Below are positions 1 to 10,075 of a stretch of 10,075 nucleotides of DNA, in pieces. The position numbers were made by a program, and so were the translations under genes. Position 1 is the stretch's first letter. Each line of letters starts with the position of its first letter. A model generated the notes under the pieces. That model saw only the letters and a list, made by a program, of their open reading frames with translations, was not told the DNA's origin and ran no database searches. The stretch covers positions 1 to 10,075 of the forward strand of contig JAYSWN010000126.1 of assembly GCA_043718025.1 (NCBI GenBank), in the 5' to 3' direction. The DNA is from Pseudomonadota bacterium (lineage in GTDB: Bacteria; Bdellovibrionota; FAC87; UBA2466).

Positions 1-465
1 GTAAGGACAAGCGAGATACAAGGCAGATCTTGGTCTAATGGCTAGGACAGTTTTACGAAAAGCCTCTAACTCGCGCAGATTCGTAACCATCGAAGCCACG
101 TCTCCATTCAAAATCCAGGCAGAAAAACGACCAGCAATCGGTGCCAGGGACGAAACGCGCTCCTGCATTTTTGCGCGCGAGGAGTAATCCCATTTTCCTA
201 AGTCGATGGAGTAATGAATCCTCGAATCAGGCTCTGGCGTCAGTGCCTTTGCCTCTTCAAATGGCACGACGATGTTGGTCACATGCTTGGCATAATCAGT
301 TGGCAAAGTTTTGGTGAACTTTGAGTCGCCCAACGACATGACTCCAATCTGGCGATGGAAAGGGGGCATATACCGACCGGGCACGAGCGGCCAGGGGGTG
401 TCCGCGTTAATCACTCGACTAAGGATTACGGCGATAAGGGCAAACCAATAGAAAGCAGTTTTCAT
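1..465 (-). CDS. Secreted hypothetical protein, partial (runs off the left edge)
   Basis: Not in the ORF track. Manual translation from ATG at 465 is open for 155 codons to position 1: MKTAFYWFALIAVILSRVINA|DTPWPLVPGRYMPPFHRQIG... The N-terminus is signal-peptide-like, and a TAGAAT -10-like hexamer lies 6 nt upstream. Confidence 0.75.
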   Translation of the reverse strand, partial: MKTAFYWFALIAVILSRVINADTPWPLVPGRYMPPFHRQIGVMSLGDSKFTKTLPTDYAKHVTNIVVPFEEAKALTPEPDSRIHYSIDLGKWDYSSRAKMQERVSSLAPIAGRFSAWILNGDVASMVTNLRELEAFRKTVLAIRPRSALYLACPY

Positions 466-471
466 ATCAGT

Positions 472-477
472 ATTCTA
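472..477 (-). promoter_or_regulatory. Putative -10 element (TAGAAT) of a leaderless transcript
   Basis: Minus strand reads TAGAAT-actgat-ATG, with no Shine-Dalgarno and no convincing -35. Confidence 0.45.
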
Positions 478-565
478 CCGGCATGTGGCCCAGGGGTTTA
501 GCGCAAAATGTTTCGGAAAAATGACGCTTTGCCGGTTCAATCTAATTCCAGTAGACACGACCAGC

Positions 566-2083
566 ATGACTTCACCTGCTTACGGCATTCATTGGTTCCG
601 CCGCGACCTTCGCGTCGCCGGTAATCCCGGCTTAGCGCTGAATTGGAAAGAGACCAAGGGACGTACGGTTGGCCTCTTTGTTTTTGACACTAAGTTTCTC
701 GCGCGGCCCGATTTTTCGGCTAATCGTTTCGCTTTTTTTCTGGCCACACTAACGTCTCTCCGCAACGAGTTACGCACACTGGGCTCAGACCTCCTCGTAC
801 TCGATGTCAATGCGGTCGAAGCGCTACCTGCCCTGTTTCATAGATTTGAAACAGCCCACGTTGGGAAACCCACCTTTGTTTCTTGGAATCGTGACTATGA
901 GCCCTTTGCCCGCGAACGGGACGCCAGGGTACGCCAATGGCTGAAGGGACAAGGAGTCCAGCTTCTTACCGATCGAGACCATTTGCTAATCGAGCCCGAT
1001 GAGTTGTCGAAGCCCACCGATCCGCAGGCGACTTACCAAGTCTTCACCCCCTTTTCGAAACGGTGGTACGAACTTTTTCTTACTCCGGCGGTGCAGGCTC
1101 GAATCGAGCAGCAGAGGAGAGGAATCGCCTTTTTAGACGATCTGAGCCGGGGCAAAGGTGAGAAGATCTTCTCGCTGACCTGGCCCGAACTCTTGCCCGT
1201 TAAATTACCTGGCCCAATGCTTGGCGCACAGCAACCCCCCGATGATTTAATTGAGCGCTACCAAAAGAATAATTTGGCCCAAGTCACGGTGCCCATTCCA
1301 GACGCGGGCAGCCAAGCGGCACTTAAGGTCTTACGGAAATTTAAAGATCACATTCAGCATTACGGTGAAGCCCGCGACTTTCCTGCCGTGATGGGAACTT
1401 CCTACCTCTCCCCTTTTTTGAAAAATGGATCAATCACGATAGCCCAAGCCATTAGTGAACTGAAGCTCACGCCCGATTCCAAAACGATGAAAACAAATCA
1501 GGGAAAATACTTTACCGAACTGGTGTGGAGGGAATTTTATTATCACATTCTCTTCCACCACCCTCGTGTCGAAGGGCAAGCCTTTCTCGATAAGTTTGCA
1601 AGCCTAAAGTGGCAAAACCGGGCGGACTGGTTTCAAGCGTGGAAGGACGGCATGACCGGTTTTCCGATCGTCGACGCTGGGATGCGGCAGTTGAAGACCA
1701 CCGGGTGGATGCACAACCGGGTGCGAATGATCGTGGCCTCGTTTCTCACCAAAGATCTTCTCATCGATTACAGGTGGGGAGAGCAACATTTCATGTCGCT
1801 ACTCTTGGATGGTGATTTGGCTCCAAACAACGGGGGCTGGCAATGGGCGGCTTCGACCGGCTGCGACCCCCAGCCCTATTTCCGAATTTTTAACCCTTGG
1901 CGGCAGAGTCTGAAATTTGATCCGCAGGGTGACTACATCCGAAAATATGTTCCCGAACTTTCGAATTGGGAAACCGACGCCATTCACAAGCCCTCGCCAC
2001 TACTGGCCCGTAATGGCTACCCCTTGCCGATCGTGGAGCATGACGTTCAGCGCGACAGAGCCCTGGCCATGTATAAGGCTTAA
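566..2083 (+). CDS. phrB: Deoxyribodipyrimidine photo-lyase (class I CPD photolyase, cryptochrome/photolyase family)
   Basis: Motifs HWFRRDLRV, YQVFTPF, RDFPA..GTSYLSPFL, ELVWREFY, GMTGFPIVDAGMRQL..TGWMHNRVRMIVASFLTKDL, DGDLAPNNGGWQW, PYFRIFNP..Q..KFDP.G.YIRKYVPEL. Start moved from GTG 485 to ATG 566 (505 aa) because WFRRDLR normally lies near the N-terminus. Confidence 0.95.
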   Translation: MTSPAYGIHWFRRDLRVAGNPGLALNWKETKGRTVGLFVFDTKFLARPDFSANRFAFFLATLTSLRNELRTLGSDLLVLDVNAVEALPALFHRFETAHVGKPTFVSWNRDYEPFARERDARVRQWLKGQGVQLLTDRDHLLIEPDELSKPTDPQATYQVFTPFSKRWYELFLTPAVQARIEQQRRGIAFLDDLSRGKGEKIFSLTWPELLPVKLPGPMLGAQQPPDDLIERYQKNNLAQVTVPIPDAGSQAALKVLRKFKDHIQHYGEARDFPAVMGTSYLSPFLKNGSITIAQAISELKLTPDSKTMKTNQGKYFTELVWREFYYHILFHHPRVEGQAFLDKFASLKWQNRADWFQAWKDGMTGFPIVDAGMRQLKTTGWMHNRVRMIVASFLTKDLLIDYRWGEQHFMSLLLDGDLAPNNGGWQWAASTGCDPQPYFRIFNPWRQSLKFDPQGDYIRKYVPELSNWETDAIHKPSPLLARNGYPLPIVEHDVQRDRALAMYKA

Positions 2084-2346
2084 GGGGTGGTTAGTCGTTC
2101 GAGATCGCCCAAGATTTGATTGGCCTCTTCGTTGCTGTTTCCACAGTACCGCACGTCGGGGGTGAAGCCGCGGCAAACGCTGGGATACGATTCGGATCCC
2201 CACAACCCACAAAGATTCTGGGTATCAAGATTGACGCAGCGAACCCCGGCGGGTTTACCCTTCGGCATGTTAGGCAGAGCCGACCCAATGCTGATGGTAG
2301 TGCAGCAAACCGCGCAGCCCGGGCGGCAAGAAAATGCCAAGTTCAT
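2080..2346 (-). CDS. YkgJ/UPF0153 (YeiW-like) cysteine-cluster protein, putative Zn/Fe-chelating
   Basis: CRPGCAVCC...MPKGKPAGVRCVNLD..NLC.L......P.VC......YCGNS.......L..LE.LT closely follows the YeiW pattern. Stop overlaps the phrB stop (TTAA 2080-2083); start overlaps the upstream gene's stop (ATGA). Confidence 0.88.
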   Translation of the reverse strand: MNLAFSCRPGCAVCCTTISIGSALPNMPKGKPAGVRCVNLDTQNLCGLWGSESYPSVCRGFTPDVRYCGNSNEEANQILGDLERLTTP

Positions 2347-2966
2347 AAGTTCATCAATTCGGATTTTAGGCGCTGATATTCCGCATCGGTAAGCGCCCCT
2401 TTTTTATGGAGTTCAAAAAGGCGATCGAGTTCATCGTATTGGTTACGCCGCGCGGGGCTGGGCACCTGGCTTTGAATTTTTTCGTAAGCCTTTTGGCCGG
2501 CGCCAAAAAGTTGTTTCAATGAGTCTAACCAGGCATCCAGAAAACGGACGCCAACGTTTTCCCCTCGAATCACGACCGAGTCAGCAACCAGGTCGTGAAC
2601 CGCCTGGCGTTTCTCTGAAAACAGGGCAAGCGCATGGCCGACGAAACAGAGACACGAAGAGGCCGCCTCTACGAAATACCTCAGAATTGCCATCGGCAAG
2701 GTGAGCGGATCGCCCATCGAATTGGTCACTTTAATGCCCATCAGTTTCTTACCAAGAGTAGCCTGCATCGCCGACGAGTGCAGAAGTGGATAGTAAAAAA
2801 AACCCAGCACGATCGGTCCGGCAAAGGGAATTCCGAAATGGAGCAGCCCACCCGGAATGAGAAGAATTAGTACATCGATAAAGAAGGCCACCAGCCGCGA
2901 CCCTAGCGACGCATAATCAGGGGAATGTACTTTGCCACCGGAAGAAGGAGGGATTGTAGGTTCCAT
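2343..2966 (-). CDS. RDD family membrane protein with C-terminal SHOCT-like domain
   Basis: YASLGSRLVAFFID, QATLGKKLMGIKV and KRQAVHDLVADSVV are the RDD motifs. C-terminal ELDRLFELHKKGALTDAEYQRLKSELM matches the SHOCT pattern. Confidence 0.9.
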   Translation of the reverse strand: MEPTIPPSSGGKVHSPDYASLGSRLVAFFIDVLILLIPGGLLHFGIPFAGPIVLGFFYYPLLHSSAMQATLGKKLMGIKVTNSMGDPLTLPMAILRYFVEAASSCLCFVGHALALFSEKRQAVHDLVADSVVIRGENVGVRFLDAWLDSLKQLFGAGQKAYEKIQSQVPSPARRNQYDELDRLFELHKKGALTDAEYQRLKSELMNL

Positions 2967-2995
2967 AAATAGTCTTTTTACCGCCTTTGCGAGAC

Positions 2996-3024
2996 AGCTT
3001 AGTTTCCCTTTGGCCGAAGGGCAA
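2996..3024 (-). promoter_or_regulatory. Putative sigma70 promoter of the RDD / YeiW-like operon
   Basis: Minus strand TTGCCC (3024-3019), 17-nt spacer, TAAGCT (3001-2996), about 30 nt upstream of ATG 2966. Confidence 0.5.
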
Positions 3025-3126
3025 TACGGCCAAAAACTAACCTTAATTTGGGAGCCGAGCGCGGTTCGAAAATAGCTCAGCTTTTTTAAGGACAGAGCGA
3101 AGGGGGATGCGCTATCACCCTGAGCT

Positions 3127-4179
3127 ATGCGGGTAAAAATAATTTTATTGATTGTTGGTTTGGCCGTCGGAATATTTTTTTATTGGCGATCAACCCCTTT
3201 GGCGCCGGTGACCGAAGTGGTGGCCACGACATTGGCGCCGGCCCCCAAGACCGAGATATCCACCCCTAAAGCGCGGGAGCGAGCGTTGTACGCCGGACCC
3301 CGCCCGGTCGTGGAGCCGGCATTGGTAAAAAAGCAAGAACTCAAGCCTGAGTGCGTGGCCTTCTGGGACAAACTTCGCGGCTTGGATTTAGAAAAATCTT
3401 TTAATGGGCCCGTCGATGCAGAAAACCCTTTTCCGGTTACTGGCGGCTGCCAATCGGTGCCTAAGGCTCTGGAAACGGCACACCAACATTTTCAGCAATT
3501 TTGTGGCGTCATGGCTCAGTTAAAAGCCCTGCCCCGTGAACAGGCGGATGTGGGACTGGCCCAATGTCAAACCATGTCCCTGCTCTACCGTGCGCAGATT
3601 GCCGACTGGCTAAGCCGCGATATTCCGCTAAAAGAAATAAAAGACAATCGGATCCTGGCCGATAAATTGCTCGCTAAATTCGCCGACAATCCAGCCGGGG
3701 CGGCCGAAGTGGCCGAGCAAATGCTGGCCCGCGATCCAGAGTTAGGTTTTGCCGCCAAGGCAGCGGCAATTGGCCGGTTTATGGATGCGCAAACTACGGC
3801 GACCGGAAATTCAAAAGATCCGAAATGGGAAAAGGCCAATGAAAGTCAGGCTCGTTTGGATAGCATTAAGGACGGAGACAAACCGCAGGCCGATGAAATA
3901 CGCCTGCTGATCGCCCAACGACGTGACGCTGATCCGCGAGGGTTTCGCGATGAAGCCGTAAGTTTGGCCGAAAAGGACCCCTCTAGTTGGGTGGGGCCTT
4001 ATTACGCCGCGTGGGGTGAGCACGCGCTAAAAAACAAACAAAAAGCTGGAGAGTGGTTAGATCAGTGTCTGACGGACGCCCGGTGTCGAGAAGCAAAAGA
4101 AAATTTAGCCAAAGGCGGGGAAGCGCCTTTTCAAAGTCACCTTACCTTTGGTTTGAATCCTCTCGAGAAGAATCCGTAG
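3127..4179 (+). CDS. Hypothetical membrane-anchored protein, helical / possibly TPR-like
   Basis: 350-aa ORF. N-terminal hydrophobic anchor (IILLIVGLAVGIFFYW), Pro/Thr-rich linker, several Cys, Ala-rich helical segments (AEVAEQMLARDP; GPYYAAWGE....NKQKAGEWLDQCL). Family not recognised. Confidence 0.8.
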   Translation: MRVKIILLIVGLAVGIFFYWRSTPLAPVTEVVATTLAPAPKTEISTPKARERALYAGPRPVVEPALVKKQELKPECVAFWDKLRGLDLEKSFNGPVDAENPFPVTGGCQSVPKALETAHQHFQQFCGVMAQLKALPREQADVGLAQCQTMSLLYRAQIADWLSRDIPLKEIKDNRILADKLLAKFADNPAGAAEVAEQMLARDPELGFAAKAAAIGRFMDAQTTATGNSKDPKWEKANESQARLDSIKDGDKPQADEIRLLIAQRRDADPRGFRDEAVSLAEKDPSSWVGPYYAAWGEHALKNKQKAGEWLDQCLTDARCREAKENLAKGGEAPFQSHLTFGLNPLEKNP

Positions 4180-4183
4180 GCAG

Positions 4184-4222
4184 AATACTAAAAGGAGTGA
4201 ACGGCGATTCGCCGATCACTCC
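4184..4222 (-). terminator. Intrinsic terminator-like hairpin between convergent genes
   Basis: GGAGTGA-A-CGGC-gattc-GCCG-A-TCACTCC (4194-4222). On the minus strand it is followed by TTTTAGTATT and lies about 25 nt after the stop of 4248..4508. Confidence 0.65.
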
Positions 4223-4247
4223 CAATCAAATTCGTTCTGCAAACTAT

Positions 4248-4508
4248 TTAGTAACAGATGGTGCGGTAAACGTAGGTGGTAACCGTTCGGTACTGGTATC
4301 CGAAACCAGTCCAAACCAATTGGACGCTGGTCACTGGAACTAAGCGAGTGACGCATGGACGAATTGGATACACGGGATAGACCGGGTACACAGGATAGAC
4401 GGGATAAACAGGAACCACGACAATGGGACGACGGCCGAACTGAGCCTGAACAGGCGAAGCCACCGACATACCCAACACCAACAGCATACCTAATAAGAAT
4501 TTACGCAT
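4248..4508 (-). CDS. Small secreted Pro/Val/Tyr-rich protein with (PVY)5 repeat and two Cys
   Basis: ATG 4508 is preceded by a GGGGGA SD-like sequence. Signal peptide MRKFLLGMLLVLGMSVASPVQA; 86 aa. Repeat codons vary only synonymously, and a terminator-like hairpin follows. Confidence 0.85.
   Translation of the reverse strand: MRKFLLGMLLVLGMSVASPVQAQFGRRPIVVVPVYPVYPVYPVYPVYPIRPCVTRLVPVTSVQLVWTGFGYQYRTVTTYVYRTICY
4368..4412 (-). repeat. Degenerate 9-bp tandem repeat encoding (Pro-Val-Tyr)5
   Basis: CCT GTT TAT / CCC GTC TAT / CCT GTG TAC / CCG GTC TAT / CCC GTG TAT. Confidence 0.9.
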
Positions 4509-4733
4509 AATCCCCCATAAATTTCCCCCGGACTCAGTGCCACCGCAGAACACCCACGTACCCCAAACCCGGGCTGAAGCCCTTGATTTCGACTCAACGC
4601 GCGCTCAAGTCAATTAGCGCTTTATTAAGCGTTATCAGTTGGTTGTGCATTTTTTATAGACCGCCATTTCATTCGCGCGGCGGGCAGGCAAAGCCCCTGC
4701 TAAAGGCCGTCCAAAGGCGTGGCGACCAAATAT

Positions 4734-4755
4734 AGGTAACCGATGTTGGTTACCT
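4734..4755. promoter_or_regulatory. Palindromic operator-like site upstream of TIGR02147 gene 1
   Basis: AGGTAACC-gatgtt-GGTTACCT, a perfect 8-bp inverted repeat. It adjoins GTTGATCAAC (contains -35-like TTGATC, 4757-4762) and a weak TG-a-TATGAA (4778-4786). Confidence 0.6.
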
Positions 4756-4798
4756 GTTGATCAACCGGCCCCTCCTTTGATATGAAGCGTCACAACCT

Positions 4799-5626
4799 AT
4801 GAACGAAAACCCTATTCCCAGTCCAGCCCAATTCGTTACCGGCGCTCTAGCGCAAAAACGGCAACGCAATCCATCTTACTCGCTGCGGGCCATGGCGCGT
4901 GATCTTGGCGTCAGTCATACGTACTTAAGTCTGGTAAAGAATGGCCGCAAACAAATATCGGCTCACCAAGCACAGTGGATGGGAGAGGCGCTAAAACTCG
5001 ATGAAACCACCCGCGCCCATTTCGTAAAGAGCGCATTGCAGACGCTCTCGGCGCGATCCCAAGGTCCCCGCCCGCTTCCCAAAAAGGTGGCGGCGTTTTT
5101 AAAACTGGAGGCAAGTCAGGCCCGATCGTTAACTGATTGGTACCACTTTGCTATTGCCGATCTCACTCTGACCAAAAATTTTCAATTTGATCCAAACTGG
5201 ATCGCCAAGCGTCTGGGCATTCCCCCGAAGCAGGCGGCACAAGCCATGTCACGTTTAGAGAGGTCGGGGTTGCTAGAAAAAACCGACCATGGCTGGCGAA
5301 AGACGAATTCATTTTTGCAATTGCCTACCGATAAAACACTGGCGCCGATGCGCCGGCTTCATCGCACAATGATTTTGAAAGCGCTGGCCGCTTTGCAGTC
5401 TTCAAAAAAATCTGACTTCGAACGGCGCGACATCACCGGCAGCATGATACCGGTGAATCCAGACCGCCTGGCCGAGGCTAAAAAGCGGATCGCTCGCTTT
5501 CGAAAACAGATGATCCGATTTTTAAGCGAAGGCGAATGCTCTGAACTTTATCAGATGAATGTTCAACTCTTTGCCCTCACCCGCCCTACCCCTTCCGCGG
5601 TCGCGGCCCTTAAGGAGCAGCCATGA
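4799..5626 (+). CDS. TIGR02147 family protein (N-terminal XRE-like HTH + DUF4423), putative transcription regulator
   Basis: RNPSYSLRAMARDLGVSHTYLSLVKNGRK (HTH), LTDWYHFAIADL, WIAKRLGI....A..A..RLER.GLL, RDITGSMI, I..FRK, LYQMNVQLF. Confidence 0.9.
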   Translation: MNENPIPSPAQFVTGALAQKRQRNPSYSLRAMARDLGVSHTYLSLVKNGRKQISAHQAQWMGEALKLDETTRAHFVKSALQTLSARSQGPRPLPKKVAAFLKLEASQARSLTDWYHFAIADLTLTKNFQFDPNWIAKRLGIPPKQAAQAMSRLERSGLLEKTDHGWRKTNSFLQLPTDKTLAPMRRLHRTMILKALAALQSSKKSDFERRDITGSMIPVNPDRLAEAKKRIARFRKQMIRFLSEGECSELYQMNVQLFALTRPTPSAVAALKEQP

Positions 5627-6852
5627 AATTATTAATCTGTGGATTACTTATTGCCCTTTCCGCCTGCGACAAAACGCGACCAATTACCCTCGGTGGCGAG
5701 AATCCCTCGCAAAACGGCACACCGCATTCGTTTGGCCCCACCCCCGGCGGCGCCGCTTCTCCCGGTGGAGGCACTGACTTTGGCGGTGGAACCGATCGAG
5801 GCATGCGCTTCCGCTTCGCCCATTGGTTTCCGCTTAAACGCAATATCGAGGTTTGTATCCGCCGGGCCGATGACTTTGCCCTAAGCCAAGAACAGTTGCG
5901 CATCACGGTTGGCAACGTATTTGACACCTGGAACGGCTACTTGGGCGACAACAACGTTGAGTTGCATGGGCTCCGCCTCAACGTGAGTATCGCTGAAAGC
6001 TGTTCACTGAACACGGATGTAGAGTTTTTATTCGGCGTCTCCGATGAAAGAGTTAGAAATTCGCGGCGCCGCTTTTACGACCCATTCGGCATGGCGCTTT
6101 TCCAGGAGGGGAAGGGCTTCATTTGGGTGGCACCAATGCAACCGAATAGCCCGCAATCGCCCGATTGGAAAAAAGCCGGCCATCTTACGGCGGTCTTGTT
6201 GCACGAAGTGGGACATGTCTTTGGCAACGATCACGTCGAAGGCACCGTGATGGCGGCGGATCTCGGCGAGTCCTTAGATGAGCTTCCGGTAAAGTGGTTG
6301 ACCCAGATCGATCACTCGCGGCAACTTCTGGCGTGCACGACGTGCGCACGGGGCTACCGAATAAAGATCGAACCCGAACTTGAAGGCAATGACCTTGTTC
6401 AGATTGCCACCCTCCAGCGAATCGCGGGCACTAATGAAACCTCGCCGTTTACCGTTCGCTTTGACGTTCAACCCAATCGAAAGAACGAGAATTTGGCATT
6501 GGAAATCAACTGGCGTGGAGGACGACGTCGCTTGACCAGCAATTTGTCAGAAAAGCTAGATCTGGGCGTTTTCCTTTCCGGCTCAAAAGTATTTTTGGTG
6601 ATGGGTAAAGACTGGAGTAGCAGCAGTTTTCAGTACAGTTCCGGTTACGAATTCCGTAACATGTGGCAAAGTGACGACGGAAAAAAATACGAAATCATTT
6701 ATGGGCTGAACATGGCTCAGGCCGATCAGGGTGATTTCGATTCAACCTTTCCCGCGCGGCTTCAACTTCTGCATGAAGGGCAGCGCGTGACCATTGTAAA
6801 CTTCCCCTCCGACAGCAATGATTTAGAATCAACGAGGAAGACTATTCAGTAG
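5623..6852 (+). CDS. Lipoprotein with metzincin-type zinc metallopeptidase motif
   Basis: Lipobox LSA|C at residue 15. HEVGHVFGNDH (6202-6234, HExxHxxGxxH) is followed by a Met-turn-like GTVM. AAGGAG SD and ATGA overlap with the upstream gene. Confidence 0.85.
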   Translation: MKLLICGLLIALSACDKTRPITLGGENPSQNGTPHSFGPTPGGAASPGGGTDFGGGTDRGMRFRFAHWFPLKRNIEVCIRRADDFALSQEQLRITVGNVFDTWNGYLGDNNVELHGLRLNVSIAESCSLNTDVEFLFGVSDERVRNSRRRFYDPFGMALFQEGKGFIWVAPMQPNSPQSPDWKKAGHLTAVLLHEVGHVFGNDHVEGTVMAADLGESLDELPVKWLTQIDHSRQLLACTTCARGYRIKIEPELEGNDLVQIATLQRIAGTNETSPFTVRFDVQPNRKNENLALEINWRGGRRRLTSNLSEKLDLGVFLSGSKVFLVMGKDWSSSSFQYSSGYEFRNMWQSDDGKKYEIIYGLNMAQADQGDFDSTFPARLQLLHEGQRVTIVNFPSDSNDLESTRKTIQ

Positions 6853-6858
6853 CGCGCC

Positions 6859-6879
6859 GTGTTTCGTTTTTTGAAACAC
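6859..6879. promoter_or_regulatory. Palindromic operator-like site upstream of TIGR02147 gene 2
   Basis: GTGTTTC-gtttttt-GAAACAC, a perfect 7-bp inverted repeat. It could alternatively be a weak terminator of the preceding gene. Confidence 0.55.
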
Positions 6880-6894
6880 ATCTTTTCAACTTAG

Positions 6895-6923
6895 TTGTCG
6901 TTGCCGTTTCACGCTCTTAGTAT
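6895..6923 (+). promoter_or_regulatory. Putative sigma70 promoter giving a leaderless mRNA
   Basis: TTGTCG (6895-6900), 17 nt, TAGTAT (6918-6923), 6 nt, ATG 6930; no SD. Confidence 0.6.
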
Positions 6924-6929
6924 CCAAGC

Positions 6930-7751
6930 ATGGGTTATTTGGATTACGAAACGGCGCCCGCAGTTGAAAATTACCGCCTCTGGTTGGTTAAAGAACTCAC
7001 TGAACGCACGCGACGCAACCCGTCATACTCGCTGCGCTCCTTTGCCAAATCGTTGGGTGTCTCCGCTCCAAGTCTCTCGCAAATTCTATCGGGGAAACGG
7101 CCATTGAGCCGAAAGACCGCCTTGAAAATTATCGATCGCTGCGCGATCTCGCCCGAGCAAGGAAAAGCCTTTTTGATGGCGGCGATGGGAGAAAGCTGGC
7201 AAACCGCGCTCAATCGAATCGATGCCTCCGCCGAGCCTGTAAACGAATTTCAGCAAGTGCAGGTTGAAACCTTTCGCGTAATTGCCGACTGGTACCACTA
7301 CGCGATCTTAAGCTTGGGCGACATTCCATCCAATCACGCCTCGCCAGTCTGGATTGCAAAAAAATTAAACATTTCTCTACGCACCGCAACCAACGCCTTC
7401 GATAGGCTACTCAAGCTAGGTCTGATCAAAAAACGGGGCAAAGGTTTTTACCAATCAGCTAAACCCTTGGCCGCCACCACCAAAATCGAACTCTCGGCCG
7501 CGCTTCGTCATTGCCACTTGGAAACCCTACGTCTCGCGGAAAAGGCGTTAGAAGAAGGGCAAGCCCCGCTCGAACTGTTTAGCTCGGTGACCATGGCCAT
7601 TGACGAAACCAAACTGCCCGAAGCCCGTGAGCTTATAAAAAAATTTAGAAGAAGCCTCTGCCGCTTACTCGAATCCGGCGACCGGCAGCGAGTTTACACG
7701 TTAGCGGTAGGACTATTTCCCGTCAGTACACCCACTAAAGGTCACCCATGA
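6930..7751 (+). CDS. TIGR02147 family protein (N-terminal XRE-like HTH + DUF4423), putative transcription regulator
   Basis: RNPSYSLRSFAKSLGVSAPSLSQILSGKRPLS (HTH), FRVIADWYHYAILSL, WIAKKLNI....A..AFDRLLKLGLI, FSSVTMAID, LIKKFRR, VYTLAVGLFP. Confidence 0.9.
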   Translation: MGYLDYETAPAVENYRLWLVKELTERTRRNPSYSLRSFAKSLGVSAPSLSQILSGKRPLSRKTALKIIDRCAISPEQGKAFLMAAMGESWQTALNRIDASAEPVNEFQQVQVETFRVIADWYHYAILSLGDIPSNHASPVWIAKKLNISLRTATNAFDRLLKLGLIKKRGKGFYQSAKPLAATTKIELSAALRHCHLETLRLAEKALEEGQAPLELFSSVTMAIDETKLPEARELIKKFRRSLCRLLESGDRQRVYTLAVGLFPVSTPTKGHP

Positions 7752-8674
7752 AACCATACTTCTTAGTGCCCCTCATCGCCTTGATGACTCTCTCTCTTTC
7801 TGGTTACGGCGGGAATGAAAAGGGCGGCGCGGGCATTGCCGAAAACAACATTCTGTTTGCTTACTGGAATCTCGAAAAATTTATCGAACTCTGCCAAGCT
7901 TCCAGCGGCTGCAATGTAAACGACGACGAGCATAAGATTTTAAATCAGCTGCGTGAAAACCTCCCGAAAGAGCGACTGACCAAGGACCAAATTGTTTTTA
8001 AGTCCGAAGCAAAAGAGCCAGGATTTTTTGTAGTGGATGGTCTGATACGCATGGCGAAAACCGGATTTAAATTGGGCGACGTTATCTATGTGAACACAGA
8101 TTTTTTGTACCCGGTGCTCGCCCTGAATATAGTTGGCGTGCCGCCGTACGGCCGACCGTTTGATATTGCGCAGGCGGTCTCAATGCTAGTTCACGAAATG
8201 GGCCACCACTTGGGAATAAAAGAGCACACCGGGTTAGATCTAATTGGCACGAAAGTACAAACGATCATGCGCACGAATACCAGCGAAGTGGATGGCGGCC
8301 CTGAAGAGCGGCAACTGATTGCCACCGCCATCGACTACGGCGGAGTCAGTGCGGCCGATTTAGTGGTGCGCGACGGCAACCGCGTGCTTTCGCTAACCGC
8401 GGCTTTGAAACAATCACTCTCCTGCCCCAACGCCAAGACTGAGACTCGGGGCTTTTGGCTCTGGAATTTGCACTGGAGCCGATACCGTTTTAAAGGGCCT
8501 AATTCGTTTATTCGCCCCCTTAGGGGGCGCGCCCAGCTGCTTTGCGGCGAACTCCCGAATGCGGAAACCAGTGCTACTGAATTCGAAGTAGAACTCGTAG
8601 CACAGAGATCAAAAGAGGGGCCCTTAGTCTGGAATGACGGCCCCTTCGTGATCCGCCAATTAAAACAAAAGTAG
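7748..8674 (+). CDS. Secreted protein with HExxH zinc-peptidase-like motif
   Basis: Signal-peptide-like MKPYFLVPLIALMTLSLSGYG, then GGNEKGGAG. LVHEMGHHLGIKEH at 8186-8227. ATGA overlap with the upstream gene. Confidence 0.8.
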   Translation: MKPYFLVPLIALMTLSLSGYGGNEKGGAGIAENNILFAYWNLEKFIELCQASSGCNVNDDEHKILNQLRENLPKERLTKDQIVFKSEAKEPGFFVVDGLIRMAKTGFKLGDVIYVNTDFLYPVLALNIVGVPPYGRPFDIAQAVSMLVHEMGHHLGIKEHTGLDLIGTKVQTIMRTNTSEVDGGPEERQLIATAIDYGGVSAADLVVRDGNRVLSLTAALKQSLSCPNAKTETRGFWLWNLHWSRYRFKGPNSFIRPLRGRAQLLCGELPNAETSATEFEVELVAQRSKEGPLVWNDGPFVIRQLKQK

Positions 8675-8755
8675 CTTTTAAACAAAAAACCGTTCTCGTA
8701 ACCGAGGCATGCGAAGCGTGTGCCTTTTTTTCCGAGAACTCTTACGGAGATAATA

Positions 8756-9352
8756 ATGAGAAACCGAATCACACAAATTGTCGTCATAGCCGTACTCGCA
8801 ACCCTCGGCGCAAAAGCCGAAGAGGTAGTTAGCATAGAGGGCGTGCTGTTCGCGCACGCCTCAGCCATCGGCGGAGAGACGACTGGCATCGTGGTGCAGC
8901 ACAATGACGGTACGACCACTGACCTGGAAATAACCAATCCTGCAATGCTTCAGCTGGCCGAAACTTTAGATCACCGTCGGGTGTTTGCAAGTGGCTGGCT
9001 GAAAATTGTGCACGGGGTACAAATTCCTGAACGGCGAGTATTGCAAACCACTTCGCTAACCGCGGCCAACCGAGACGTGGTTTGCAAATCGAGCACCAGT
9101 GACTACCGACTTGAAATTTCTCTAGAAATGAAAAAGAGCCGGGTATTGAAAGGGCCGGCCTGGCTCACCACGCTGGCGTGCACGACCGCGCCGATGAATC
9201 CCGTTCAATACTTTTGCTACGAGCCCAACGTCGCCGATGCTGGCTACCAAGTGATCTTCAATGACACTTCGGGAGTACGACCGCACGCCGAGCTTTACGA
9301 AGTGTTTTTTTGGGGCCGTAAACTCCTCGATAGACTCGACTGCTTAAACTAA
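8756..9352 (+). CDS. Secreted hypothetical protein, probably two small beta-rich domains
   Basis: GGAG SD 6 nt before ATG 8756 (preferred over GTG 8720). Signal peptide ending AKA; AIGGETTG segment in the N-terminal half; four Cys in the C-terminal half; 198 aa. Confidence 0.8.
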   Translation: MRNRITQIVVIAVLATLGAKAEEVVSIEGVLFAHASAIGGETTGIVVQHNDGTTTDLEITNPAMLQLAETLDHRRVFASGWLKIVHGVQIPERRVLQTTSLTAANRDVVCKSSTSDYRLEISLEMKKSRVLKGPAWLTTLACTTAPMNPVQYFCYEPNVADAGYQVIFNDTSGVRPHAELYEVFFWGRKLLDRLDCLN

Positions 9353-9376
9353 ACCTCACTTTCAGCCCCCCTTAAT

Positions 9377-9429
9377 TAGTGCTGGCTCCTTCCCGATCCT
9401 TTCTTTGGCCGGTGAAGGGGCCGGCACTA
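9377..9429 (+). other. Long RNA stem-loop downstream of the 8756..9352 gene (3' stabiliser or atypical terminator)
   Basis: TAGTGCTGGCTCCTTC (9377-9392) pairs with GAAGGGGCCGGCACTA (9414-9429) using two G-U pairs, extended by CCG/CGG. No U-tract follows. Confidence 0.6.
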
Positions 9430-9578
9430 GAACAGGCTCATCCATTGCAACCAAGGTGAGCGGACGTTCAGCGCACGATGCAAATTGGCGCTCATACCGA
9501 GGCCGAAAGACTGCGGTTTACGGGTTTAATGCACGATGACGAACTGCAAGAAAAATTTCGCTAGTTGGCCAATCGTTC

Positions 9579-9587
9579 TGTTAAAAT
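9579..9587 (+). promoter_or_regulatory. Putative extended -10 promoter (TGnTAAAAT)
   Basis: TG-t-TAAAAT, 9 nt upstream of ATG 9597; no SD. Confidence 0.5.
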
Positions 9588-9596
9588 AAGCCCGCG

Positions 9597-10075
9597 ATGA
9601 GTACCCGTTTCGGATTACAAATTTTTTGCGCTTTTGCGATCGCATTAAGTCTCATTGGAAATGCCCTTTCGGGGTGCTCCTGGTCCGGAGTAAAACCTCA
9701 ATCCATTCAATTTCGCCTTACCCCACCCGACCGCACCTATTCGGCGCATTCCGGCCGCGGCCCCAACCTTGCCGATATGCAATTCTTCGCATTAGTTGTT
9801 TCTGGCGACAGCACCCTCACGTCGACAACTTTAGGCAGTCGCAAGCCCAGCTGTCTTTACCTAGACGGGCAAGTGCTATCGCCCCTCACTTACGAACAAC
9901 TCACGGTGAAGGGGGTAGACGTCAATGTTTCCACCGGCGCAAACCGCTTTCGCATCGTTGGCTTTTACGGTGGGCAGGGTGCCACCATCGGCGAAATATT
10001 TTCGTCGCCCGATGCTCCCCCGCAGACCTACCTCATCGCTGACTCGGGGGTAATTAATCTGGCGTCAAAAAGCCA
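9597..10075 (+). CDS. Hypothetical lipoprotein, partial (runs off the right edge)
   Basis: Not in the ORF track. Manual translation is open to the window end: MSTRFGLQIFCAFAIALSLIGNALSG|CSWSGVKPQSIQFRL...FFALVVSG...VDVNVSTGANRFRIVGF. Lipobox LSGC. Confidence 0.8.
   Translation, partial: MSTRFGLQIFCAFAIALSLIGNALSGCSWSGVKPQSIQFRLTPPDRTYSAHSGRGPNLADMQFFALVVSGDSTLTSTTLGSRKPSCLYLDGQVLSPLTYEQLTVKGVDVNVSTGANRFRIVGFYGGQGATIGEIFSSPDAPPQTYLIADSGVINLASKS

Follow-up and report, generated by a model that had tools for sequence, protein, structure and literature searches.

Tandem TIGR02147/DUF4423 regulators with tagged exported partners in a Bdellovibrionota genome: candidate peptide-controlled feedback cassettes

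What do the regulators of the TIGR02147/DUF4423 family respond to, and why do two of them stand in tandem in a Bdellovibrionota genome, each followed directly by a gene for an exported-type protein? The locus lies in a stretch of 10,075 nucleotides (contig JAYSWN010000126.1 of assembly GCA_043718025.1, positions 1 to 10,075 of the forward strand; hereafter the window), in which positions 4734..8674 are occupied, as read from the open reading frames (ORFs), by two consecutive gene pairs with the order palindrome, regulator and ATGA-overlapped partner. The first pair comprises a regulator of 275 aa (4799..5626, +), with an XRE helix-turn-helix (HTH) domain, a winged HTH and a C-terminal domain, and a partner of 409 aa (5623..6852, +); the second comprises a regulator of 273 aa (6930..7751, +) and a partner of 308 aa (7748..8674, +). 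Both partners begin with a signal-peptide-like N-terminus and contain a Gly-rich motif (GTDFGGGTD in partner 1, GNEKGGAGI in partner 2) and an HExGHxxG motif (HEVGHVFG and HEMGHHLG, respectively). This two-module layout, with its four ORFs, two ATGA overlaps and both motif types, had been described in a reading of the bare sequence (the original prediction), and the cassette pair is a real feature. Here we describe the Gly-rich motif as one version of a nine-residue tag whose variation follows the regulator and not the body of the partner, and which is probably the signal that the regulator senses.

Both regulators lie well above the cut-offs of the two family models to which they had been assigned by eye: TIGR02147 scores 94.7 bits on regulator 1 and 122.7 bits on regulator 2 (cut-off 50), and DUF4423 (PF14394) scores 139.5 and 121.4 bits (gathering cut-off 30) over model positions 4-165 and 5-165. 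They are 29% identical across 253 aa and fall in separate clades; a recent duplication of the cassette, which the original prediction had likewise discounted, was rejected on these grounds. The GC content of the cassettes equals that of the genome (0.519). The family is indeed paralogously expanded, with 11 matches in this 4.1-Mb genome and matches in 99 of the 121 genomes of a phylum sample; a single genome can contain up to about 30. The structure model of regulator 2 (predicted local distance difference test score 89, predicted template modelling score 0.62) resolves into an XRE domain (~13-95), an ArsR-like winged HTH (109-183) and a C-terminal part with helices at 186-209 and 226-248. The best PDB sequence matches of the regulator N-terminal domain are HigA antitoxins (E 4e-6). 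The sole solved structure aligned across most of the winged HTH and the C-terminal part is Kfla_6221 (Z 8.0, root-mean-square deviation [rmsd] 4.9, 150 residues), itself of unknown function; a Foldseek search with regulator 2 returned nothing at E <= 0.001.

The breadth of the pairing was assessed in a training sample of 229 loci, drawn from 12 fully sampled related genomes and the top hits of others, which yielded 175 distinct full-length regulators; 149 of these score at least 150 on a local profile, 147 of them with enough flank. A held-out sample added 142 later regulators, 139 of them usable for coupling. A partner was counted as coupled if an exported-looking gene starts within -40..+35 nt of the regulator stop, signal peptides being called, in place of SignalP, by a crude hydrophobicity rule (supplemented by eye for the two window partners) that over-calls and flags 955 of the 2944 genes in this genome. 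Such a gene follows 109/147 training and 121/139 held-out regulators, against 248/2741 genes in this genome, and the junction is an ATGA in 54 training and 62 held-out cases. The association also holds from the side of the partners: the regulator lies directly upstream in 22 of 24 partner-1 relatives (14 on the same strand and 8 divergent, the others being one convergent and one cut off) and in 7 of 8 partner-2 relatives, as well as in 9 of 12 metagenome loci (two of them identical), two of the three misses having no upstream room.

The original prediction had proposed one dedicated regulator per exported peptidase, and had anticipated an enrichment of exported HExxH neighbors across TIGR02147 loci. 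The enrichment is present: HExxH occurs in 24/109 training and 26/121 held-out partners (13 of the training partners having HExGHxxG), against 37/955 exported-like proteins, an about 6-fold excess in the training sample. Truncation of partners at the edge of some loci makes the HExxH counts slightly low, and p-values are overstated, as kin are not independent. The local regulator with its own operator stands as well, but about 78% of the partners (85/109 training, 95/121 held-out) lack HExxH. Zinc peptidases are thus one cargo class, a minority, and not the defining element. A hydrophobic-HE motif without the second His occurs in 95/253 partners against 48/955 background proteins, and might mark degenerate or gluzincin-like peptidases.

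The element common to most partners is instead the nine-residue tag, with the consensus G-x-E-V-G-N-G-G-D, represented in the window by G50-D58 of partner 1 (5770..5796, +) and G22-I30 of partner 2 (7811..7837, +), both with an acidic third residue. The motif was trained on 132 partners, of which 113 score at least 8, a count that is circular; in the held-out sample it was found in 92/121 partners, against 13/955 background proteins and 1/27 partners of low-scoring regulators. BLAST distinguishes 24 cargo groups among these 113. In 5682 pairs whose cargo bodies are unrelated, tag similarity is correlated with the similarity of the regulator C-terminal domains (rho 0.20, p 0.005), the part of the regulator with which the correlation is strongest, while control 9-mers taken before the tag, after it and at the N-terminus show no such correlation (rho 0.04, -0.02 and 0.07). 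In the nine-member clade of regulator 1 the tag type stays constant whether the cargo is a metzincin or another protein. Hence, tag variation goes with the regulator and not with the cargo body.

At the level of single columns (given in regulator 2 numbering), a scan of column pairs singled out S128, S218, R240 and R241, with R240-R241 encoded at 7647-7652 (+) and corresponding to R235-K236 of regulator 1 (5501-5506). The top pairs by mutual information are tag position 2 with S128 and tag position 3 with R241. A charge rule for the latter pair, fixed before the held-out loci were analysed, describes an acidic tag residue 3 in 65/81 versus 1/21 training cases; in the held-out sample this residue is acidic with 43/48 basic and 0/25 acidic regulator residues at 241, is reversed to K/R in 17 of the 25 acidic-241 regulators, and is of mixed charge with the 19 neutral ones. 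The pair again ranks first in the held-out data (z 10.4), and both window pairs obey the rule (R241 with E, K236 with D). Basic tags form 15 tree clusters, of which 12 lie on Asp241, one on Asn, and two are apparent register errors. Charges that swap reciprocally typically indicate a salt bridge, and on this basis the regulator is likely to contact the tag of its partner directly. DUF4423 behaves like a sensing domain, in line with the sensor role that had been suggested for it.

Each regulator gene is preceded by a predicted operator next to a predicted promoter. Operator 1, GGTAACC-N6-GGTTACC (4734..4755, +; 8 perfect pairs, 6-nt spacer), ends 1 nt before the -35 element of a weak promoter (4757..4786, +) composed of TTGATC (4757-4762), 18 nt and TG-n-TATGAA (4778-4786), with a leader of about 6 nt. 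Operator 2, TGAAACA-N3-CTTTTCA (6872..6888, +), ends 6 nt before the -35 element of a second promoter (6895..6923, +; TTGTCG, 17 nt, TAGTAT; score 9.1, 8/12 consensus matches), transcription from which would begin with the ATG at 6930. A terminator scan reports operator 1 as an 8-pair stem, a repeat scan with a 7-base seed and a 10-base minimum lists neither palindrome, and promoter 1 is below threshold in both promoter scans. The inverted repeat at operator 2 (6871-6889, 6 perfect pairs, 7-nt spacer) is on its own at chance level, and both palindromes are kept in orthologous cassettes. Module 1 reads GGTAACC-N6-GGTT(A/T)CC, 2 nt, TTGA, 18 nt, TGn-TA in the window, L231 and L243 (3/3), the regulators of the latter two being 55-57% identical to regulator 1; module 2 in the window, L256, L257 and L258 (4/4) reads as a 17-bp TGAAACA-type palindrome (TGAAACA-N3-TGTTTCA in L257 and L258), 6 nt, -35, 17 nt, -10, 6 nt and ATG. 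The inverted repeats noted originally are therefore both present and kept at a constant distance from the -35, and this conservation is decisive for the predicted operators of the window.

In all seven of these cassettes the operator is upstream of the -35 and not over the promoter, and each operator is private to its regulator clade. Over the wider sample, strong palindromes precede 32/108 coupled regulators against 4.2 in shuffles, and in a promoter slot analysis based on sigma-70 weights the palindrome center falls 10-18 nt upstream of the -35 start in 12/42 promoters, and in 17/47 held-out ones, versus 5/142 control genes. With regard to a second, weaker site over the -35, through which restriction-modification controller proteins repress, a palindrome at -2..+6 is present in 10 of 47 held-out promoters, and the extra half-sites in the training data lie upstream. 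Near-matches to the operators elsewhere in the genome number 18 and 9 against about 13 expected, and a regulon beyond the cassettes was rejected as these are only at chance level; a 2-mismatch copy of operator 1 at 4265, inside the 101-aa gene at 4248-4553 (-), is likewise at chance level. The start sites offer nothing special: an ATG lies 5-10 nt past the -10 in 19/42 regulators versus 46/142 controls (p 0.14), and a leaderless start was rejected as a special trait. Neither regulator gene has a Shine-Dalgarno-like word, as had been noted at the outset, but this is not distinctive in a genome where only 616 of 2205 genes have one. Genome-wide, TANNNT peaks 12-13 nt before the ATG (111 and 62 of 2203 genes versus mostly 20-58 at other offsets). 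From this peak and the scarcity of Shine-Dalgarno-like words, leaderless mRNAs look common in the lineage.

Taken together, we propose that each cassette is a self-contained feedback unit, in which the regulator would bind its own palindrome beside the weak -35, presumably through the XRE head, and would activate the two-gene operon. Activation is the likelier sign because the operator is upstream of a weak -35, and not over it, as is the activating site of the controller proteins of restriction-modification (R-M) systems. The tag, in the form G-x-[ED]-x-G-[NG]-G, would dock on the C-terminal DUF4423 part with its third residue paired to residue 241, and after export it would most likely be clipped off and come back as a peptide, like PatX in the HetR system, to turn the regulator down. 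A locus on contig C182 of this genome (-, ~8410-8700; L005) is suggestive in this regard: a TIGR02147 gene there overlaps by ATGA a 96-aa ORF made up of a signal peptide, three tag copies and an acidic tail, with no folded domain, and the related regulators L070, L042 and L073 have partners with similar tags. Further short tagged ORFs of 51-85 aa were found among 57 regulators that have no long coupled partner. Such a multi-copy tag ORF lacking a folded domain favors a processed peptide. We give the complete scheme, with export and return of the tag, roughly an even chance. Extending it to the family is more tentative, and falls somewhat short of that: TIGR02147/DUF4423 proteins could be a large undescribed class of peptide receptors, to which clipped tags, perhaps cut by the cargo's own zincin, return as cognate ligands, so that Bdellovibrionota would have up to dozens of orthogonal circuits reporting export and processing of each product, with a residue code (241/tag 3, 128/tag 2).

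Several observations weigh against this proposal. No second cleavage site and no import route for the tag were identified. The phylogenetically independent-pairs test points in one direction only over nine pairs (on average 5.2 same, 0.0 opposite and 3.7 no change), and its median p of 0.0625 is not significant; the rule for column 128 was in part not replicated (N to D in 12/13 training and 2/7 held-out cases, D to T in 6/7 and then 1/4), and one of the three large cargo families shows no tag-regulator co-variation (rho 0.04). On the side of the DNA, held-out palindromes also occupy other slots (13, 10 and 10 of 47), similarity among operators is only weakly related to the recognition helix (partial rho 0.10, p 0.011), and a strict promoter scan of the region lists no promoter. 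As for the comparison with HetR developed below, the monomer model of regulator 2 assigns no strands to the C-terminal domain, which we infer to contain them; the profile of this domain has no HetR match in PDB sequences or Pfam, PF18460 has no match to these genes, and the HetR hood is not among the listed fold matches of the regulator.

These points have to be set beside other ways of reading the locus. The regulator might bind the tag in the cytoplasm, while it is still part of a precursor awaiting export, and the cassette would then gauge the export rate of its own product without a released peptide; type III systems, with chaperone- or ExsE-type secretion-coupled control, provide an analog. 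The same tag-regulator co-variation would be expected here, neither a protease nor an importer is required, and in 44 of the 113 tagged partners, which have a lipobox, the tag sits within the linker, as far as about 55 residues along, and no cut site is conserved behind it. Yet the tag often begins at an Ala/Gly signal-peptidase-like site (the preceding residue is A in 65 and G in 43 of 205), the triple-tag ORF of L005 resembles a peptide precursor, and PatX, the closest analog, acts only if exported, according to the part of that study available to us (PMC12756182). We regard precursor sensing as rather unlikely, though a serious contender. A regulator that neutralizes the tagged precursor of a harmful peptidase in the manner of an antitoxin, with the complex repressing the operon as in HigBA, would account for the HigA matches of the N-terminal domain, the regulator-first ATGA order, the upstream palindrome and the contact with the tag. 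It sits poorly with the position of the operator in 7/7 cassettes, with the export signals and conserved Cys pairs of the partners, and with the several cargo families and the tag-only mini-protein without a peptidase motif; furthermore, these genes differ from HigBA in that no RelE/HigB toxin family is matched and the partners are signal-peptide proteins. We therefore consider it improbable.

The cassettes could also be dedicated switches for an exported peptidase. A different ligand would then be sensed by DUF4423, or this domain would do no more than dimerise, and the tag would serve export or folding or act as a pro-peptide signal, associated with the regulator by linkage alone. The excess of HExxH and of the HE-only motif among the partners would suit this, as would the non-significant independent-pairs result and the conservation of the tag within the partner-1 family, where G50 is kept in 131 and G56 in 132 of 141 sequences. 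Linkage, however, would extend to sequence closer to the regulator than the tag, which correlates little or not at all; the charge reversal is found repeatedly, across 12 tree clusters and among the held-out families; where members of the same metzincin family lie next to the divergent regulator clade, they are mostly without the tag consensus; and about three quarters of the partners have no HExxH. This makes a peptidase switch quite improbable. Finally, a common regulator family might simply have come to lie beside common exported genes, given that about a third of the genes look exported by the crude rule and that the tandem order is not kept in L444; the coupling frequencies in both samples, the upstream regulators of the partner relatives and the conserved operators leave such chance adjacency with hardly any likelihood.

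Among known systems, the proposed feedback unit finds its closest analog in cyanobacterial HetR with PatS, HetN and PatX, like which the cassettes would work, with no homology to HetR detected. In the available portions of the relevant studies, HetR is described as a dimer bound to a palindrome, whose alpha-beta-alpha-beta C-terminal domain is bound, with charge pairing, by the Gly-containing hexapeptide PatS6, which releases the DNA and contacts the first strand and second helix of that domain (PMC4649674), and PatX as exported and then processed, export being required for its action (PMC12756182). Regulator positions 217-219 and 240-241 would fall on the elements matching this peptide-contact strand and helix, if the topology that we infer is correct. 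In contrast to HetR, DNA binding here involves XRE and winged HTH domains; the tag is not RGSGR or XRGSGR and is usually acidic; and it rides on the regulated cargo of the same operon, with up to about 30 family matches per genome and apparently private tags and operators. The RRNPP regulators (PlcR-PapR, AimR-AimP) have tetratricopeptide repeat (TPR) domains and small dedicated peptide precursors. They share with our cassettes the succession of a regulator gene and a gene for the exported precursor of the cognate peptide, in paralogue-specific pairs, but differ in that there is neither a TPR family match nor room for TPRs here and the cargo is usually a 120-500 aa protein; the NCBIfam AimR model matches at E 0.078, over the HTH only. 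The controller (C) proteins of R-M systems are single small HTH domains. As presented in the accessible part of one study, their XRE gene overlaps the controlled gene, the activating site is just upstream of a weak -35, and the mRNA is often leaderless (PMC2632904). The overlap, the position of the site (here a predicted operator) and the weak promoter (likewise predicted) recur in both window cassettes, which differ in having two extra regulator domains and an exported cargo where C proteins control a nuclease; none of the restriction endonuclease or methylase families is found among the 12 window proteins scanned.

Both partners of the window are predicted to be zinc-peptidase-like, and neither reaches a Pfam or NCBIfam cut-off. 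Partner 1, from a large unnamed family with 996 clusters at E <= 0.001, is predicted to carry, in this order, the lipobox LSAC (Cys15), a Pro/Gly/Ser linker, the tag, a metzincin-type peptidase domain and a C-terminal domain. Its zinc motif HExxHxxGxxH (H194-H204) and Met-turn-like T-V-M210 (6202..6252, +), a combination resembling that of metzincins (M10/M12/M57-like), emerge from an alignment of 141 sequences (the window protein and 140 of 150 listed relatives), with HExxHxxGxxH in 138, the downstream T/S-x-M in 135 and M210 itself in 137. PDB matches are weak and mostly to matrix metalloproteinases (MMPs) and other metzincins (MMP/fragilysin best E 0.03), Atlas neighbors include Peptidase_M10, and Pfam Peptidase_M10 gives 14.8 bits, below the cut-off of 24. 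Partner 1 is most likely a metzincin-type lipoprotein. No related loci were found with its alignment as a query against the genome contigs.

In the model of partner 2, a predicted signal peptide is followed by the tag at the mature N-terminus, a helical zincin-like domain (30-176) and a beta-rich C-terminal domain (178-305). Five relatives were found, the nearest Atlas clusters being mostly from Bdellovibrionota, and the motif HExGHHxGxx[DE]H (H149-H160; 8192..8227, +) is kept in 6/6 close relatives; one Bdellovibrionota metagenome-assembled genome encodes partner 2 at 58% and regulator 2 at 68% identity. Residues 20-177 align with AsaP1 (Z 8.0, rmsd 3.5, 121 aa) and with a Grifola peptidase and deuterolysin (Z 7.7), scores for these three M35 structures that are no higher than those of unrelated rows and in the range that the alignment tool rates as common; Foldseek returned nothing at E <= 0.001. 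M35 aspzincins have a GTxDxxYG motif after HExxH, which partner 2 lacks, reading GxK[DE]H in relatives with no YG. Both partners differ from known peptidase families in adding the tag and a C-terminal domain without a family match. The statement that the two show no obvious similarity is correct for BLAST (best E 0.05), but a weak profile-profile match (69% probability, 161 columns) runs through the tag and the zinc motif.

No function, operator, partner or ligand was reported for TIGR02147/DUF4423 in the literature covered by our search (which left subscription papers and bioRxiv supplements outside), in agreement with the original remark that the family has no established function: DUF4423 appears as a table row and TIGR02147 is not mentioned. 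The same search returned no description of a VGNGG tag in Bdellovibrio, nothing relevant on Fibrobacter family members and nothing related on leaderless transcription start sites in Bdellovibrio. In the part of a B. bacteriovorus proteome study available to us, six DUF4423 proteins are quantified, among them Bd3700, whose level of log2 3.4-3.9 has increased to 6.6 at 4 h, a change of about 8-fold in the late phase of the predatory cycle (PMC12546842). Among 14 neighboring locus tags looked up in it, Bd3701, Bd3702, Bd3757 and Bd2626 alone are detected; Bd3701 and Bd2626 rise with Bd3700 and Bd2625, and Bd3757 changes opposite to Bd3758, the gene orientation not being visible there (PMC12546842). 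A look-up of RNA sequencing runs containing the DNA of the window listed none. If the proposed feedback unit is correct, it would supply a ligand, a binding site and DNA targets for a family of unknown function present in most of the sampled genomes of the phylum, a peptide switch per cassette could time the many uncharacterised exported proteins of predatory bacteria, and orthogonal regulator-peptide-operator sets would serve as synthetic circuits. Should the tag not bind, the modest remainder would be local regulators of exported-protein genes.

The paralogues outside the main set show variations of their own. The 31 low-scoring regulators (L010, L011 and others), 28 of them in one clade, lack the WYH and FRR motifs; 27 of the 31 are head-to-head with an exported gene, with the same peptidase families and a Ser/Gly-rich tag variant. 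L001 and its orthologues L014-L039 form a paralogue conserved family-wide near ribosomal protein genes (names judged by eye), followed by an exported protein of 170-200 aa with a GFEIGNG-type tag that is sometimes doubled. The conserved L002-type paralogue has no coupled partner.

Within the window, a Shine-Dalgarno-like AAGGAG for partner 1 lies in the 3' end of regulator 1 (5612..5617, +). A hairpin 3' of the partner 1 stop (6859..6879, +), whose right arm is common with operator 2, could be a weak terminator or an extra half-site, and the terminator scan finds a terminator-like 10-pair stem with a T run 3' of partner 2 (8704..8726, +). Tandem order was rejected as a conserved trait: L444, the sole relative with flank long enough for this check, has the module-2 orthologue but no partner-1 relative within 1.7 kb upstream. 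Behind the terminator-like stem, 8756-9352 encodes a 198-aa exported-looking protein without a family match, which is also found 3' of module 2 in L256 and L444 (53% identity). Divergent from operator 1, the 101-aa gene at 4248-4553 (-) specifies an exported-looking protein with a run of Pro-Val-Tyr repeats, again without a family match, and a six-codon ORF at 4782-4802, the stop of which overlaps the ATG of regulator 1 and the start of which is inside the predicted -10, is probably there by chance. Two more membrane-anchored or exported orphans without a Pfam or NCBIfam match are encoded at 3127-4179 and 9597-10075. The remaining neighbors are ordinary, namely a DNA photolyase (485-2083), a CxxCxxCC protein (2080-2346) and an RDD-SHOCT protein (2343-2966).

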